A stretch of 64,000 bases of DNA from Bacteroides fragilis (GTDB lineage: Bacteria > Bacteroidota > Bacteroidia > Bacteroidales > DTGW01): positions 66,349 to 130,348 of the forward strand of contig CAMDBI010000004.1 of assembly GCA_945889005.1 (NCBI GenBank). Reading direction: 5' to 3'. The notes beneath the pieces were generated by a model that had not been told where the DNA came from, did no database searches, and saw only the letters and a list, made by a program, of their open reading frames with translations. Shown piece by piece: positions 2,113-13,142 of this stretch (positions are counted from its first letter, which is position 1; every line of letters starts with the position of its first letter). The translations under genes and the position numbers were made by a program.

Positions 2113-2150
2113 TGAGTTAATGATTTAATATGCAAAGTTGTGTGAAATTG
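2111..2150. repeat. Stop-codon-proximal AT-rich array of degenerate 8-nt units
   Basis: Starts inside the clpB stop codon: AATGAGTT AATGATTT AATATGCA AAGTTGTG TGAAATTG. Same unit family as the arrays at 8975, 15428, 19410, 21800, 23187 and 59625. Confidence 0.5.
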
Positions 2151-2371
2151 GGATTCAGTATCAGATACGAGTTTTCGTTAAATAAATGCTAAATAAGTAA
2201 CCCCGTTAATTTGCAAGCCCCACGAGCCTTCGCTCAAGTCAGAAGCTTCAAAATGTGCAGCAATTATTCAATTCTAAAGTGCTATATATCAACTTTTAAT
2301 GTAATGTTTAACAAATTTAAAATGCTTTAAACGAATTGAATTGATTAAATTTGTTAATTGGATTACTTTAA

Positions 2372-2379
2372 TATCTTTG
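2372..2379 (+). promoter_or_regulatory. Candidate Bacteroidota -7 promoter box (TAnnTTTG)
   Basis: TATCTTTG lies 19 nt upstream of the ATG at 2398. Motif match only. Confidence 0.35.
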
Positions 2380-2397
2380 CATAAAATAATATAATAA

Positions 2398-3276
2398 ATG
2401 GCTTTAACTAATGATAATAAGATACTTGATAAATATCGAAGTTATTCATCGATATTTTCAAGTACTTCTTTTGTTAGATTATTAGATTATGATGATTATT
2501 CCTTTATAAATGCAAAAATTGAACGATACGATTTATCGAGAATTGGAGTAGATATAAATACTTATTATGATTACATAAAATATGTTTATTTTCAATTAAA
2601 GAAGGAATACCTAAACGAGTATATTTATAAAAATACATTTATTAATAGCTTATTGATTGATAAATACGGTATTAAAGATACAGTTGCTATTAATGAATTT
2701 AGAGTAGGCAACTCAATTGCTGATATTGTAATGTTCAATGGAACGAGTAAAGCATTTGAAATTAAAACTGAATTGGATTCAAATAAGAGATTAAGTTCTC
2801 AATTGTCTGATTATTCTAAAATATTCAAAGAATGCTATATTATAACTCATGAATCTTTAACCGAAAAGTATTTAAAAGAAGTTAATCATGTAGGAATAAT
2901 AGAACTTAACGAAACGCCTAATTCGGTAGTAATGCGGGAAGTTCGTAAAGCAAAAGAAAACACAACCATTGACTACAAAACATTAATACGTTCATTAAGA
3001 ACAGCAGAATATAAAAATATAATTGAACGATATTATGGAGTACTTCCAAAAATGAATAGTTTTAATATGTTTGAGATATGTAAAGAAATGATGAAACACA
3101 TTCCATCTGAATCATTACATCAACTTTTCATAGATGAATTAAAGAAGAGAAAATCAAACACATTCATTATAAAAAAGTTTCAAGAAGAATTGAGACAGCT
3201 TTTTTTTGCAATGAATTTAAATGAAAAATCATTTAATGAAATTAACTACAAAATAAACAAACCCATTAATCTATAA
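2398..3276 (+). CDS. PD-(D/E)xK (restriction-endonuclease-like) fold protein, resembling the 'sce7726 family' as I remember it
   Basis: Motif E..(INEFRV)..D(IADIV)..x12..E-I-K (AFEIKTELD) at about nt 2692-2766, preceded by NEYIYKN. First gene of a tight 3-gene operon. Very AT-rich. Confidence 0.5.
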   Translation: MALTNDNKILDKYRSYSSIFSSTSFVRLLDYDDYSFINAKIERYDLSRIGVDINTYYDYIKYVYFQLKKEYLNEYIYKNTFINSLLIDKYGIKDTVAINEFRVGNSIADIVMFNGTSKAFEIKTELDSNKRLSSQLSDYSKIFKECYIITHESLTEKYLKEVNHVGIIELNETPNSVVMREVRKAKENTTIDYKTLIRSLRTAEYKNIIERYYGVLPKMNSFNMFEICKEMMKHIPSESLHQLFIDELKKRKSNTFIIKKFQEELRQLFFAMNLNEKSFNEINYKINKPINL

Positions 3277-3281
3277 TTGCC

Positions 3282-4217
3282 ATGTATTTCCCATACTTGC
3301 GAGGACGTCAGTTCGAACTTATTGCTTTACGTGAATATGCTTTACAGCGAGGAGATAATAATAACATAATTCCAATTATAGAACCTGTTAAGAGTACTTT
3401 CAATAGCATGAAACTAGCATTACCAAAGCTAATTGATGGTAATGTAAAATTTGCTTTAATTCTTAATCCACAAGACGGAGATTTTAAAAAAACAAATGAA
3501 AAGAAAGACATTGTTGATGAGCTAAAAGATGAATTAAAAGATTTGTCAAAGTGGATTCCTGCTTATCGTTTAAATAATAATTATAAAGAAGTTATTTCTC
3601 AAGTAGAAAAATATTCATATGAAAATGTAATGTTAATTTGTACTGAGAGTACCAATACTGACGATATAGACTTTACATCTTTATCTTCGATGGGAAATGT
3701 AAAATATTTTGTTTCAAAAGAGAATCGTACTTTAAAAAGAAAAATTAGAGGAAAGAACTTTATTTTATTAAACGATAATTTTAAAGCTCAAAAAAGGAAT
3801 AGTGATTATTTAGCAATGCCAGAGAGTAAATTTTCAGAAGAACATTTATTTTTTCGTGAAGATGGATATAAAGGATTCTCAGATTATACAACATTGGTGA
3901 GCGATTTTATTGAAGGTGGTGCTGCTCCATACGCTGTTGCTATACACCTTACTTACAAGAAGGAAAACGAGGAAATATGGATTAGGCATTTTGCTTCAAA
4001 TTCAAATGACGACAAATCAAATATACAAGGTAAATTTGCAGAAGCAGCCGAAAAAGCTGTAAAATTTCTTGATTCAAAGAGTATTCATACAATTGCCTCT
4101 GAAGAATTAAGAAGCTATTTCAATAATGGAGATTATCCAGGTTTAGGAATGGTTAAAAAGATTTCAATAAAAAATCATTTCGAGTTAATGAATGATTCAT
4201 TAAAAATTATTGGATAA
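3282..4217 (+). CDS. sce7725-like / phage 'Beta protein'-like family protein (function unknown)
   Basis: The N-terminus MYFPYLRGRQFELIALRE matches the Y-x-P-x-L-[KR]-G-[KR]-x-x-E-L-x-A-L start I associate with that family. Starts 5 nt after the upstream stop. The family call is from memory and untested. Confidence 0.4.
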   Translation: MYFPYLRGRQFELIALREYALQRGDNNNIIPIIEPVKSTFNSMKLALPKLIDGNVKFALILNPQDGDFKKTNEKKDIVDELKDELKDLSKWIPAYRLNNNYKEVISQVEKYSYENVMLICTESTNTDDIDFTSLSSMGNVKYFVSKENRTLKRKIRGKNFILLNDNFKAQKRNSDYLAMPESKFSEEHLFFREDGYKGFSDYTTLVSDFIEGGAAPYAVAIHLTYKKENEEIWIRHFASNSNDDKSNIQGKFAEAAEKAVKFLDSKSIHTIASEELRSYFNNGDYPGLGMVKKISIKNHFELMNDSLKIIG

Positions 4218-4219
4218 TT

Positions 4220-5239
4220 ATGAAAGTATGTGTTCACTGTTTTAATGATATAGAACTAAAGCAATTTATCAAAGTTAATTCAATCGAAAAGGGCAAATGT
4301 GATTATTGCTCAAATAGTTTTGATACTGAGTTATTAGATATAGAAGAATTATTAGATTTCTTTGCAGAATTTATTGGAATATTTAAATCTGACTCTCAAG
4401 GTAAATCATTAATTGAGCTAATACAATCTGATTGGAATCTTTTTTCAGATACAATTGTATGTAATGGTATGCTTGAAGAAATTCTATTTTTTATCGATTC
4501 TACATTAAGTCCTGAGGATAGAGTCAATTATATAGATGATATTTTAGAATCTACATCACACTGGGAAAAGCTAAAAGAAGATATTAAATGGGATAAACGC
4601 TTTTTAACTAATACTGATATCCTTGAAGATTTGGGTTGGGTGAGATTTTTTCAACAGACAGTTCAATGGCCCAATGCAGAATTTTTATTCAGAGCAAGAT
4701 TACACTATAGTGGAAATCAAAAAGAATTTATGATTGAGGATATGGGTTTTCCTGACAAAAGATTAGTCCCTGCTGGTCGTGCAAATCCTCAAGGAATACC
4801 ATATTTATATCTATCTAAGAGTGTTGAAACAGTTTTGTATGAAGTTCGTTCAACTTTCCTAGATGAAGTTAGTGTCGGAAAATTTCATGTTAAAGATGAT
4901 TTGAAAATAGTTTTGGTTGATTTTACTGAAAAAGCAAGTGCGTTTTCAAAAGTTGATGAAATAATAGAATTTACAAAATCAATGCTATTAAAAAGATATA
5001 TCAGTGCTGATTTATCAAAACCAATTCGCCGTTATGATTCAGAGATAGAATATATTCCTACTCAATTTATTTGTGAGTATATTAGATATATTTCAAATGC
5101 AGATGGAATCTTATTTAATAGTTCTTTACATAATGGGGGCAAAAATATTGTCCTTTTTAATCAAGACAAAGTTGATTGTGTAAAAGTTGATTTGTATAGA
5201 GTTTCTCAGGTTAATATTCTTGCTGACCCAATAAAATAA
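4220..5239 (+). CDS. RES-domain protein (putative NAD+-targeting toxin/effector) with an N-terminal 4-Cys zinc-ribbon-like module
   Basis: RES signature GRANPQGIPYLYLSKSVETVLYEV (R...Y..S....E) plus downstream DGILFNSSLHNGGKNIVLF. N-terminal CVHC-x22-CDYC. Starts 2 nt after the upstream stop. Confidence 0.65.
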   Translation: MKVCVHCFNDIELKQFIKVNSIEKGKCDYCSNSFDTELLDIEELLDFFAEFIGIFKSDSQGKSLIELIQSDWNLFSDTIVCNGMLEEILFFIDSTLSPEDRVNYIDDILESTSHWEKLKEDIKWDKRFLTNTDILEDLGWVRFFQQTVQWPNAEFLFRARLHYSGNQKEFMIEDMGFPDKRLVPAGRANPQGIPYLYLSKSVETVLYEVRSTFLDEVSVGKFHVKDDLKIVLVDFTEKASAFSKVDEIIEFTKSMLLKRYISADLSKPIRRYDSEIEYIPTQFICEYIRYISNADGILFNSSLHNGGKNIVLFNQDKVDCVKVDLYRVSQVNILADPIK

Positions 5240-5463
5240 TGCAAGGGGTACTTTATACTTACTTATTTTAGTTTTTGACAACGTGTCATAGTTAATAGCT
5301 GGTTTTTCGGTTTATTCAACTTCTCGTCTCGCTGGTTGTTTTCCTCGTAGGATAGTGTAGATCTTCCGAAGTCCGCTAAATATCATACCTGCAAACGATA
5401 TAAGTAATAAATATTTTTTTATTTGTAATTAGGGACTTCGATATTCAGGTTCATTTTTTATTG

Positions 5464-5471
5464 TACCTTTG
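5464..5471 (+). promoter_or_regulatory. Candidate -7 promoter box (TAnnTTTG)
   Basis: TACCTTTG lies 23 nt upstream of the TTG start at 5494. Confidence 0.3.
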
Positions 5472-5493
5472 GACTTTTTAAAAATATAATACT

Positions 5494-6717
5494 TTGAATT
5501 TTAACGATTTTAATTTAACACCAACCTTATTGGAAGGTTTGGATTCTATGGGATTTAAAAGTCCTACTCCAATTCAGGAACAGGCTATTCCAATTATCAT
5601 GCAAGGCAAAGACCTGATTGCATGTGCACAGACTGGTACTGGCAAAACAGGAGCATATCTTTTGCCTGTTATTCATAGGCTTACAGAAGATCATGTTGGT
5701 CATAATTCCTTCAAATGCCTTATAATTGTTCCAACCCGAGAGCTTGCAATGCAAATCGACCAGCAGGTCGAAGGCTTTGCATATTTTTGCCCTATTAGTT
5801 CGGCTTCGGTTTATGGAGGAGGAGAGGGGCAGCTGTGGGATATGCAAAGAAATGCTCTTAAGGAAGGCGCCGAGATTGTTATTGCTACTCCCGGTCGCAT
5901 GATTTCGCACCTCAATATGGGTTATGTAAAAACTTCGGAAGTCGACTGTTTAATACTCGACGAAGCAGATCGTATGCTCGATATGGGTTTTTACGACGAT
6001 ATTGTTAAAATTATTGACCAAATCCCTAAGAAGCGACAAACCTTATTGTTTTCGGCTACTATGCCAGACAAAATAAGGCAACTGACTCGTAAAATATTGG
6101 TCGATCCGGCGCAAATAAACTTAGCTGTTTCAAAACCTGCCGAAAACCTCTTGCAATCTGTGTGTTTTGTCGAAGATCAAAAGAAAAGTGAAATGATTCT
6201 TGAATTATTTAAGGGTGTCGACATTCACAATGCATTGGTTTTTTCGTCAAAAAAAAGTAATGTAAGTCTCATTGCACGCGAACTCCGTAAGCTTGGACTC
6301 TCTGTTGCTACCATTCATTCCGATATGGAACAGCGCGAACGCGAACAAAGTTTGCTCGATTTCCGAAACAACAAAGCGCAGGTTATGGTCGGAACCGATG
6401 TAATATCTAGGGGCATCGATATTGTGGGTATTTCTATGGTTGTAAATTACGATGTGCCGGGCGATGTCGAAGATTATATTCATCGAATTGGACGAACAGC
6501 TCGTGCCGACAACAAAGGCGAAGCAGTAACTTTTGTAAACCGAAACGATCGTTATCGTTTACGAAAAATCGAACAATTTTTGGGTTACCAAATAAAAAAA
6601 CGCGATATACCCGAACATCTTTTGTCGAAAGAAATTGAGCCGGATATGCCTCACAAGCAACGCCCACATCCTAATAAGTTCAGAAAGTTTGCTAAAAAAA
6701 GATCGGAAAATACATAA
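5494..6717 (+). CDS. DEAD-box ATP-dependent RNA helicase (TTG start as listed)
   Basis: Q-motif (FKSPTPIQEQAIP), motif I AQTGTGKT, motif II DEAD (LILDEADRMLD), SAT, HRIGRTAR. Basic C-terminal tail. Confidence 0.92.
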   Translation: MNFNDFNLTPTLLEGLDSMGFKSPTPIQEQAIPIIMQGKDLIACAQTGTGKTGAYLLPVIHRLTEDHVGHNSFKCLIIVPTRELAMQIDQQVEGFAYFCPISSASVYGGGEGQLWDMQRNALKEGAEIVIATPGRMISHLNMGYVKTSEVDCLILDEADRMLDMGFYDDIVKIIDQIPKKRQTLLFSATMPDKIRQLTRKILVDPAQINLAVSKPAENLLQSVCFVEDQKKSEMILELFKGVDIHNALVFSSKKSNVSLIARELRKLGLSVATIHSDMEQREREQSLLDFRNNKAQVMVGTDVISRGIDIVGISMVVNYDVPGDVEDYIHRIGRTARADNKGEAVTFVNRNDRYRLRKIEQFLGYQIKKRDIPEHLLSKEIEPDMPHKQRPHPNKFRKFAKKRSENT

Positions 6718-12011: not shown

Positions 12012-12413
12012 ATGATGAATAATGACATACGTTGGAAACAGCGTTTTAAAAATTTTGAGAATTCGTTGAATTTTATAGAACAAGCACAAGATATAGAAAA
12101 TCCATCTATTATCGAAAAAGCTGGATTGATTCAGTTTTTTGAAATAAGTTTTGAGCTTTCATGGAATTTACTTAAAGATTACTTAGAAGAAAAAGGTTAT
12201 ATTGATATAAAATTCCCGAGAGATACGATTAAAAAAGCCTTTGAAACCGAATTGATTCATGATGGAGCGCTTTGGTTAGAGGCATTAAAAAACAGAAATC
12301 TTACTTCACATACTTACGACGAGGAGCTTGCCAATGCAATGGTAGCAGTTATAAGTCAAAAATATTATCCGATGCTTAAGCAACTGTACCTTAAACTTAA
12401 ACCTGAAATATAA
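12012..12413 (+). CDS. HEPN-domain protein, HI0074-type nucleotidyltransferase substrate-binding protein (toxin of a HEPN-MNT pair)
   Basis: RWKQRFKNFENSL start and R-x4-H motif (RNLTSH). Its stop overlaps the next start by 1 nt (TAATG). Confidence 0.85.
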   Translation: MMNNDIRWKQRFKNFENSLNFIEQAQDIENPSIIEKAGLIQFFEISFELSWNLLKDYLEEKGYIDIKFPRDTIKKAFETELIHDGALWLEALKNRNLTSHTYDEELANAMVAVISQKYYPMLKQLYLKLKPEI

Positions 12414-12718
12414 TGTTTGGGCTTAAAGATTCTGATTTAGAAGAAATAAAAAAAATTATTTCCGATTTTAAAGAAGTAGAGGTCGCGTATATGTTTGGAA
12501 GTAGGGCGAAAGGCAATTATAGGCATGGAAGCGATGTCGATATAGCTCTTAAAGGAAAGGACCTTACATTTTCGATTGTTTCGTCAATTGCAGGAATACT
12601 GAACGAAGATACTTTGATGCCCTATAAATTCGATGTATTGAACTACTATAGCATTTCAAATAAGGAATTGGTAGAACATATCGATAGGGTTGGGGTGGTT
12701 TTTTGGGAGAATTTGTAA
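12413..12718 (+). CDS. Minimal nucleotidyltransferase (MNT, HI0073-like antitoxin)
   Basis: FGSRAKGNYRHGSDVDIAL (G-S ... D-x-D pol-beta NTase motif). 101 aa. Coupled to the HEPN gene. Confidence 0.85.
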   Translation: MFGLKDSDLEEIKKIISDFKEVEVAYMFGSRAKGNYRHGSDVDIALKGKDLTFSIVSSIAGILNEDTLMPYKFDVLNYYSISNKELVEHIDRVGVVFWENL

Positions 12719-12842
12719 TTTAACAATTGCGCATCTTTGAAATTTTTTTTACAGTATACTCTCTTAGACTGTTGTATCCAATGTATCACTTGGTTTTTTG
12801 TAAGTTTACATGGATTTCTTAATTTTGAATAAAATTTAAAAT

Positions 12843-13142
12843 ATGTACTTGGATAATTATTTAAACAATTTAAAAGGTCTTTGTCAGCAAAACAACGTGA
12901 AATCATTATTTGTATTCGGATCTGTTTTGACAGATAGATTTAATGATAATAGTGATATCGATTTAGTTGTTGATATTGATTCAAGTGATCCAATAGATTA
13001 TGCCGACAATTATTTTAACTTGAAGTTTGCTCTTCAAGATTTATTTAAAAGACAAATCGATTTGTTGGAGAACAAGGCGATAAAGAATCCATATATTCGT
13101 CATAATATTGATAAATCTAAATATTTGATATATGCCAAATGA
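12843..13142 (+). CDS. Second minimal nucleotidyltransferase (orphan MNT, no adjacent HEPN/DUF86 gene)
   Basis: FGSVLTDRFNDNSDIDLVV motif. 99 aa. Followed directly by a strong terminator. Confidence 0.75.
   Translation: MYLDNYLNNLKGLCQQNNVKSLFVFGSVLTDRFNDNSDIDLVVDIDSSDPIDYADNYFNLKFALQDLFKRQIDLLENKAIKNPYIRHNIDKSKYLIYAK

Follow-up and report, generated by a model that had tools for sequence, protein, structure and literature searches.

A conserved sce7726-sce7725-RES cassette as a candidate anti-phage system linking relatives of P4 cII and Beta to an aRES-type enzyme

The subject of this study is a three-gene cassette found in a stretch of 64,000 nucleotides (nt) from a Bacteroides fragilis assembly (GCA_945889005.1, contig CAMDBI010000004.1, positions 66,349 to 130,348 of the forward strand). 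This whole stretch is called the window, and coordinates refer to it unless another locus is named. An earlier note, made from the sequence alone, had described the genes as encoding a nuclease-like protein, a sce7725-family protein and a Zn-ribbon protein with a RES domain, and had proposed that they form an uncharacterised defence or abortive-infection module. The three proteins were compared with family models, sequence profiles and predicted structures, and loci carrying their relatives were then surveyed. The three genes form a conserved sce7726-sce7725-RES unit, which we think is probably a mobile anti-phage system.

The cassette and its three proteins

The cassette consists of the following features.

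2113-2397, + strand: upstream non-coding spacer, 285 nt, containing the -7 box and an inverted repeat
2398-3276, + strand: gene 1, 292 amino acids (aa)
2695-2766, + strand: putative catalytic core of gene 1 (E100, D109, E121, K123), PD-(D/E)xK-type motif
3282-4217, + strand: gene 2, 311 aa
4220-5239, + strand: gene 3, 339 aa
4229-4309, + strand: CxxC...CxxC Zn-ribbon of gene 3 (C4, C7, C27, C30)
4769-5182, + strand: RES domain of gene 3 (residues 184-321), Pfam envelope
5240-5493, + strand: downstream non-coding spacer, 254 nt, ahead of the DEAD-box helicase gene

The genes are co-directional and lie exactly where the earlier note had placed them, with gaps of 5 nt between genes 1 and 2 and 2 nt between genes 2 and 3. 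The spacers, put in the earlier note at ∼250-280 bp, are 285 and 254 nt long. On the left is a ClpB-type gene with its stop at 2112, and on the right a DEAD-box helicase gene with its start at 5494. The higher AT content relative to the flanks, judged by eye in that note, was also borne out. The GC content of 2113-5493 is 0.281 (28.1%) against a window mean of 0.378 (37.8%) with a standard deviation of 0.033, and is the minimum among 607 equal-length sliding windows of the stretch. The profile drops from ∼0.42 in the flanks to 0.24-0.32 within the cassette. The box seen just upstream, TATCTTTG at 2372-2379, is a Bacteroidota-type -7 box (TAnnTTTG) and lies 18 nt ahead of the gene 1 ATG.

Gene 1 scored 188.7 bits (E 9.2e-56, residues 72-252) on the NCBIfam model sce7726_fam (NF033832), whose curated cutoff is 70 bits, and is classified on this basis as a member of the sce7726 / Phage_P4_cII family. 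It carries a precomputed PF26915 Phage_P4_cII label from a newer Pfam release, and matches phrog_984 (1.9e-28) and the PADLOC 'cll' model of the gop_beta_cll system (7.6e-23). The cII protein of phage P4 (reference genome X51522) scored 151.4 bits on the same sce7726 model and is 28% identical to gene 1 (E 4e-14). The label 'nuclease-like' in the earlier note was therefore too modest, as gene 1 is the sce7726 partner itself and in the same family as P4 cII; the motif behind the label is real. E100, D109, E121 and K123 are invariant across the aligned gene 1 homologues (n=27, 60-81% identity), and the core region aligns with the P4 cII motif ADLAIANGSLQAFEIK. The core is preceded by a helical N-terminal extension of ∼70 aa and followed by a helical C-terminal region. 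The AlphaFold2 (AF2) model has a predicted local distance difference test (pLDDT) score of 78.7. Its Foldseek matches were weak (best E 8e-3) and included 3dnx (prob 1.0), a cap-snatching endonuclease and Cas4 SSO0001, neighbors that are thematically consistent with a nuclease. Pfam nuclease models gave no match to gene 1.

Relatives of the gene 1 nuclease core (residues ∼100-200) were also found in 177 phage records, mostly from large lytic phages that infect Bacillus, Staphylococcus and Enterococcus; a few of the proteins are annotated as nuclease or endonuclease. An example is found in Bacillus phage Deep Blue (KU577463, 52118-52657). It follows that phages, too, use the sce7726/cII fold.

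Gene 2 opens with MYFPYLRGRQFELIALRE, which the earlier note had linked to the sce7725 family. The assignment holds over the full length: the protein scored 308.7 bits (E 5.7e-92) on NCBIfam sce7725_fam (NF033831, curated cutoff 60 bits), with residues 2-306 aligned to positions 1-311 of the 312-position model, and is classified as a full-length family member. It also matches phrog_34524 (8e-51). When a profile of 25 diverse sce7725 proteins was aligned using hhalign with a profile of five Beta proteins, the two matched with 93.3% probability and E 2.6e-7 over 204 columns, so the sce7725 and Beta families are probably homologous. In the AF2 model (pLDDT 76.6) β-strands and helices alternate. 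The Foldseek matches were all weak (best E 6e-3) and nearly all were TIM barrels, which suggests a TIM-barrel-like fold; a sequence search of the family profile against the PDB returned nothing meaningful. Y2, P4, R7, E34, D165, D201, H222, H236, K251, K292, K293 and H299 are invariant throughout the sce7725 family. The polar residues among them (R7, E34, D165, D201, H222, H236, K251, K292/K293 and H299) are located at or just after predicted strands, and we infer from the model that these may be the positions where TIM-barrel enzymes keep their active sites.

Gene 3 passed the cutoff (23.2) of Pfam RES (PF08808) with 61.2 bits (E 1.5e-16). The four cysteines of the Zn-ribbon are invariant in its trio homologues (n=26) and in standalone plasmid proteins of the same NTD1-RES architecture. 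The same is true of the RES residues G186-R187-x-N189, Y197, E208, R210 and S301. PF18870 (HEPN_RES_NTD1) is on record for several close homologues. A profile of the gene 3 family was aligned using hhalign with the aRES protein of E. coli UC5, whose sequence was taken from Table S4 of the aRES preprint (10.64898/2026.01.28.702374). The match had 96.1% probability and E 3e-9 over 295 columns (residues 3-317 against 7-356), spanning Zn ribbon, NTD1 and RES, and the UC5 sequence begins with the same CxxC...CxxC motif as gene 3. In the RES part BLASTP gave 29% identity (E 4e-10). Judged by these alignments, gene 3 is a full-length homologue of a validated anti-phage aRES protein. The family profile matched no solved RES toxin structure in the PDB at E <= 1.

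The HMM (hidden Markov model) searches thus confirmed all three domain calls of the earlier note. Its link to the P4 gop-beta-cII locus proved stronger than claimed, given the 151 bits of P4 cII on the sce7726 model, the 'cll' match of gene 1 and the profile match between sce7725 and Beta.

Conservation, distribution and neighborhoods of the trio

The earlier note had named co-localisation of the three families as a point on which its proposal could fail. Using the gene 2 alignment, one genome per species was scanned for 185,579 species, which generated 80 loci with 36-71% identity. All open reading frames (ORFs) of the 80 loci were then scored by HMM searches. Gene 1, gene 2 and gene 3 were intact, in the same order and on the same strand, in 66/80 species-representative loci. 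The other 14/80 comprised nine loci cut by contig ends, three decaying loci with frameshifted or truncated genes, and two that truly lack gene 3. Gene 3 follows gene 2 in 69/71 assessable loci (66 intact plus three decaying). The median intergenic gaps are 2 and 3 nt, and the identities of the three proteins to the window copies co-vary (Spearman rho 0.90, 0.84 and 0.80). The three genes strictly co-occur and co-diverge, and on this point the proposal of the earlier note passes by a wide margin.

The 80 loci belong to Bacteroidota, Cloacimonadota, Calditrichaceae, Izemoplasmatales, Bacillota (mostly Lachnospiraceae), a Melainabacteria metagenome-assembled genome (MAG) and Psychrobacter, a spread of at least five phyla. 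The same gene order was found at 31-33% identity on plasmids of Shinella, Rhizobium phaseoli and Moraxella osloensis and on a Ralstonia megaplasmid. The trio is also present on three IMG/VR viral or prophage contigs and in an integrative conjugative element (ICE) of Salmonella houtenae, and it is chromosomal in 19/5,426 (0.35%) complete E. coli genomes, where PGAP labels the three genes one by one. The RES gene is almost always present in the sampled sce7725 clade. The converse does not hold for plasmid NTD1-RES proteins: full-length proteins resembling gene 3 were found in 85 plasmid records and sce7725 in 15, most of the former being without a sce7725 neighbor. The operonic form is therefore a minority clade of a wider NTD1-RES family. 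Standalone relatives on Enterobacter, Bacillus and Rahnella plasmids have 385-460 aa, with the same domains plus a C-terminal extension. The trio RES proteins form their own short (∼340-aa) clade lacking this extension of ∼45-120 aa.

The trio is mobile, and its flanks vary from genome to genome. Flavobacterium lacustre has a resolvase, T5orf172 and an MmeI-type restriction-modification (RM) system beside it. Other loci are bordered by Type I RM, HEPN/MNT and SocA_Panacea genes, by IS21 and IS91, or, in a housekeeping context like that of the window, by alaS and a peptidase gene. In E. coli MS 115-1 the trio (V9Z46_RS20195-20185) has a KwaB-like gene, IS3 and remnants of Type I RM beside it. 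At the same site, E. coli 300444 has the downstream flank in common with MS 115-1 and a different upstream cargo. Both E. coli contexts inspected are defence islands, and that of 300444 is dense. Horizontal acquisition, as suggested in the earlier note, is supported by the low GC content, the differing flanks and the carriage on plasmids and an ICE.

Directly upstream of the trio in E. coli 300444 (L194, 109-6515) lies a cluster of adenylate/guanylate cyclase, TIR-domain and caspase-family genes together with a reverse transcriptase gene and a phosphoribosyltransferase-like (PRTase) gene.

An exact-protein look-up and a helicase-anchored metagenome scan brought up no close relative that has the clpB-helicase junction. 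The look-up returned only the same strain. The scan returned helicase relatives of at most 73% identity, with clpB nearby in 1/80 and on the opposite strand there; the relative at 73% identity has an unrelated gene upstream.

The trio loci have no conserved non-coding DNA ahead of gene 1, and therefore no signal for the cassette ends could be defined. A repeat search of the locus gave no convincing flanking direct repeats or att-like sites at the island borders. Taken with the lack of upstream conservation, this means that the conserved unit is essentially the three ORFs. Rfam was searched for non-coding RNA in the spacers, and all matches were sub-threshold (E > 0.6). A simple scan identified no + strand terminator-like site in 5240-5493. 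A scan for sigma-70 promoters and terminators did not exceed shuffled expectation, and such a scan is not applicable to Bacteroidota.

Upstream of the -7 box lies a perfect 13-nt inverted repeat, TTAACAAATTTAA / TTAAATTTGTTAA (2308-2320 / 2345-2357), with its arms 24 nt apart. It could act as an operator, and it is not conserved in the other trio loci.

A few further loci were inspected. One of the two loci without gene 3 (L052, a Lachnospiraceae MAG, 2767-6096) has, ∼570 nt after gene 1 and gene 2, a DUF6119 protein (548 aa) and an AAA_21/AbiEii-like ATPase (505 aa). These were considered as a swapped effector and rejected; they probably belong to a neighboring system left after loss of gene 3, possibly another defence pair. 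An orphan sce7725 gene is followed by a GNAT acetyltransferase gene on the E. faecium plasmid p114-2 (L175, 3306-5513) and in OR848224 (L191, 7416-8937). We did not find an effector swap convincing here either, as sce7726 and RES genes are absent and the surrounding genes (for an amidase, an ABC transporter and a dihydroorotate oxidase) are metabolic; the TIM-barrel-like protein may have been domesticated or taken into metabolism here. OR848224 is a 10.5-kb record filed as 'Listeria phage LM 4-14-1' (UNVERIFIED_ORG). Its gene content mirrors the E. faecium plasmid region and its ORF list holds no obvious phage gene, so the record is probably misfiled DNA of bacterial or plasmid origin.

In the window, ∼7 kb downstream of the trio (12015-13142), precomputed Pfam labels assign NTase_sub_bind (PF08780) and NTP_transf_2/Polbeta domains to three small genes. 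They look like HEPN/MNT-type toxin-antitoxin pairs.

Comparison with aRES proteins, RES toxin-antitoxins and Gop-β-cII

Osterman et al. described the aRES proteins in a preprint of January 2026 (bioRxiv 10.64898/2026.01.28.702374). According to this preprint, aRES proteins protect against phages by converting nicotinamide adenine dinucleotide (NAD+) to nicotinamide and ADP-ribose-1P (ADPR-1P), with growth arrest. They occur in ∼4% of genomes, are associated with defence islands, and are reported to function alone rather than in operons. In the parts of it consulted, nothing is said on how infection is sensed. Members are defined there as proteins of 300-600 aa in which RES and PF18870 are detected by HHsearch at >80% probability. 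Gene 3 fits this definition in its length of 339 aa and its RES domain; its PF18870 match is weak (E 0.0079), obtained using hmmscan rather than HHsearch. For the RES domain the preprint Methods cite PF00808, probably a typographical slip, since RES is PF08808.

Judged by the hhalign match, gene 3 has the same Zn-ribbon/NTD1 (PF18870) plus RES architecture as aRES; the active-site residues and the association with defence islands are also in common. The relationship is distant (∼22-29% identity). The trio RES proteins have ∼340 aa while the aRES sequences have more than 399 aa, a lower bound, and unlike the standalone proteins described, gene 3 begins 2 nt after gene 2 as the third gene of a strictly conserved operon. 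Flavobacterium xinjiangense CGMCC 1.2749, which carries a trio locus (L021), and strains of Rhizobium phaseoli are in the published aRES gene list (Table S2, with IMG 2664274453 for F. xinjiangense). The match is by strain, not by gene coordinates, and on this basis the published family probably includes operonic members that were not noted as such. Because gene 3 is a full-length homologue of aRES proteins, whose chemistry is published, the effector half of the module can no longer be called uncharacterised, as it was in the earlier note. Targeted searches of incomplete literature gave no paper describing a sce7726-sce7725-RES operon, and the family names appeared in annotation lists only.

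The RES-Xre and MbcTA systems also have a RES NAD+ phosphorylase toxin that is neutralised by a co-encoded protein. They differ from the trio in being two-gene systems with a small antitoxin (helix-turn-helix/Xre-type or MbcA) and a short RES toxin without NTD1. Pfam and NCBIfam searches of the three trio proteins identified no Xre or MbcA-like gene.

Gop-β-cII (Rst_gop_beta_cll) is a system of P4-satellite hotspots that protects E. coli against lambda and P1, and its gop gene is toxic without beta (Rousset et al. 2022, PMC9122126). The phage gene orf184 triggers the system and leads to cell death (10.1101/2023.04.06.535777). In a 2024 survey its genes were still 'of unknown function'. The two systems are alike in being three-gene modules carried by mobile elements. 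Gene 1 and P4 cII are both in sce7726 / PF26915, and gene 2 and Beta have the N-terminal motif YxPxLRxxxxE and ∼200 aligned columns in common. A toxic third component is demonstrated for P4, in Gop, and presumed for the trio, in the RES protein.

The differences are also considerable. P4 Gop has 133 aa and no RES domain, and is unrelated to gene 3. Gene 1 has the extra N-terminal region of ∼70 aa. P4 and four plasmid relatives have gop-beta convergent with cII, whereas the order in the trio is cII-like, beta-like and RES, co-directional and tightly coupled. PADLOC and DefenseFinder define the system by gop, beta and cII together. In the three trio proteins the PADLOC models gave 7.6e-23 for cll, 0.013 for beta and no match for gop, including none for gene 3. 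The PADLOC 2023 models, the sole defence library run, thus recognise gene 1 only, and a system call needing all three components would probably miss the trio.

P4 Gop matched the PADLOC gop model (4.8e-70) and was the sole match among the gop-position proteins examined. The gene at this position upstream of four plasmid Beta-cII pairs was variable or unidentifiable, and none of the gop-position genes beside other Beta-cII pairs could be identified with Pfam, NCBIfam or the PADLOC gop model.

Upstream of the Beta-cII pair on Sinorhizobium fredii pSfreNXT3b (L179, 1689-3370), ORFs match fragments of the Hachiman helicase HamB (PADLOC 1.5e-13), suggesting a decayed Hachiman system.

Proposed mechanism and alternative explanations

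The RES/aRES chemistry and its anti-phage effect, the defence by Gop-β-cII, and the relief of Gop toxicity by Beta are known for homologues of the trio proteins only. The homologies themselves, the linkage and co-divergence of the genes, and their mobile and defence-island settings were observed here. On these grounds we think it probable, with some reserve, that the three genes make up an anti-phage system of the abortive-infection type that is self-contained and horizontally mobile, and in which an aRES-type effector is placed under β-like and cII-like control. Gene 3, released or activated on infection, would phosphorolyse NAD+ to nicotinamide and ADPR-1''-phosphate, and growth of the infected cell would stop. 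Genes 1 and 2 would be the control module, the counterparts of cII and Beta. Since P4 Beta neutralises the toxic Gop, sce7725 is proposed by analogy to restrain or gate the RES enzyme, either holding it inactive or setting the threshold for its activation. The sce7726 PD-(D/E)xK protein may sense infection, with phage DNA or a phage protein as the cue, or it may be a second effector that acts as a nuclease. Compared with P4, the small Gop toxin would have been exchanged for a RES toxin.

Several observations weigh against this proposal. In the window the cassette is outside any defence island, between clpB and the helicase gene. The kinship of gene 2 with Beta is remote: the match to Pfam Beta_protein (PF14350) reached 15.1 bits (E 0.016; gathering threshold 27 bits) and covered the N-terminal 110 residues only, the PADLOC beta match of 0.013 is sub-threshold, and pairwise BLASTP against P4 Beta was not significant. 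As the link is visible at the profile-profile level only, gene 2 represents a related family and is not a member of Beta_protein. None of the fold matches for gene 1 or gene 2 is better than E 1e-3. The convergent arrangement of cII and beta in P4 and the plasmid loci, against the co-directional trio, means that the regulatory logic may differ. As aRES proteins are reported to work alone, RES activity in itself does not depend on partners. The role of the partners as sensor or restraint is pure analogy.

The trio might instead be a tripartite toxin-antitoxin (TA) addiction module, with a RES toxin, a sce7725 antitoxin and a sce7726 regulator, selected not for phage defence but for the stabilisation of plasmids, ICEs or islands through post-segregational killing, or for persistence. 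RES proteins are classic TA toxins (Xre-RES and MbcTA), Gop and Beta act like a TA pair, and the trio often sits on mobile carriers (plasmids, a megaplasmid and an ICE). However, many copies are chromosomal, between housekeeping genes or in defence islands beside RM, TIR and Kiwa-like genes. For two of the three genes, the nearest homologues that have been characterised, in aRES and Gop-β-cII, act against phages, and a TIM-barrel-like protein of 300 aa and a nuclease-like protein of 290 aa are atypical as antitoxins. We regard addiction as an unlikely explanation, while noting that it and defence are not mutually exclusive.

Less likely again is a DNA-targeting, restriction-like system with the sce7726 nuclease as its effector, in which modification or signalling, for instance by ADP-ribosylation or an ADPR-derived second messenger, would fall to the RES and TIM-barrel proteins, and NAD+ would not be depleted. 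Some RES-family enzymes are reported to ADP-ribosylate proteins instead of depleting NAD+, and RES products have been discussed in the literature as possible signals. The invariant E-D-ExK core, the nuclease-annotated relatives of this core in many phages and the enzyme-like conserved polar residues at the strand ends of the TIM-barrel protein would fit as well. Against it, gene 3 retains the residues it has in common with aRES, which depletes NAD+ in vivo, no DNA-modification gene is associated with the trio, and no demonstration of nuclease activity for any sce7726/cII protein was found in the literature searched.

The most doubtful of these alternatives is that a standalone aRES gene merely lies beside a separate sce7726/sce7725 module of unrelated function. 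Although aRES is reported to work alone and outside operons, and most of the gene-3-like proteins of plasmids are without a sce7725 neighbor (85 records against 15), gene 3 follows gene 2 in nearly every assessable locus of the sampled sce7725 clade, the genes are separated by 2-3 nt or overlap across phyla, their proteins co-diverge (rho 0.80-0.90), and the trio RES proteins form a separate short clade without the C-terminal extension. A housekeeping or metabolic function is ruled out by the sporadic distribution (0.35% of E. coli genomes) and the variable flanks.

On the reading as an anti-phage system with an aRES-type effector, each half of the trio is of a kind already known in phage defence, and the exchange of effectors is familiar as well. 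What the trio adds is a tie between two systems known separately, Gop-β-cII, which has a phenotype and no mechanism, and aRES, whose chemistry is known. In at least five phyla, an aRES-type enzyme is firmly tied to relatives of Beta and cII, which suggests that Beta and cII are an effector-independent control module and that one aRES clade has outsourced its regulation to it. We put forward more tentatively that the sce7726 and sce7725/Beta pair may be a portable and ancient module for infection sensing and control that can be coupled to unrelated killers, Gop in P4 and an aRES-type enzyme here. The TIM-barrel protein would then be an enzyme or a small-molecule-binding switch that relays the signal from the nuclease-like sensor to the NTD1 of the effector. 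A switch rather than a passive antitoxin is suggested by the polar residues conserved at the strand ends (R7, E34, D165, D201, H222, H236, K251).

Through the trio one could learn the function of the P4 partner proteins, and NAD+ and ADPR-1P would provide a simple assay read-out for the mechanistically opaque Beta/cII module. As native copies are present in 19 complete E. coli genomes, including that of MS 115-1, a strain in laboratory use, the hypothesis is directly testable in a standard host. If the pair is indeed a module of this kind, it would account for how Gop-β-cII works and how enzymes of the aRES type become active, and the trio would represent a new class of three-component defence signalling.

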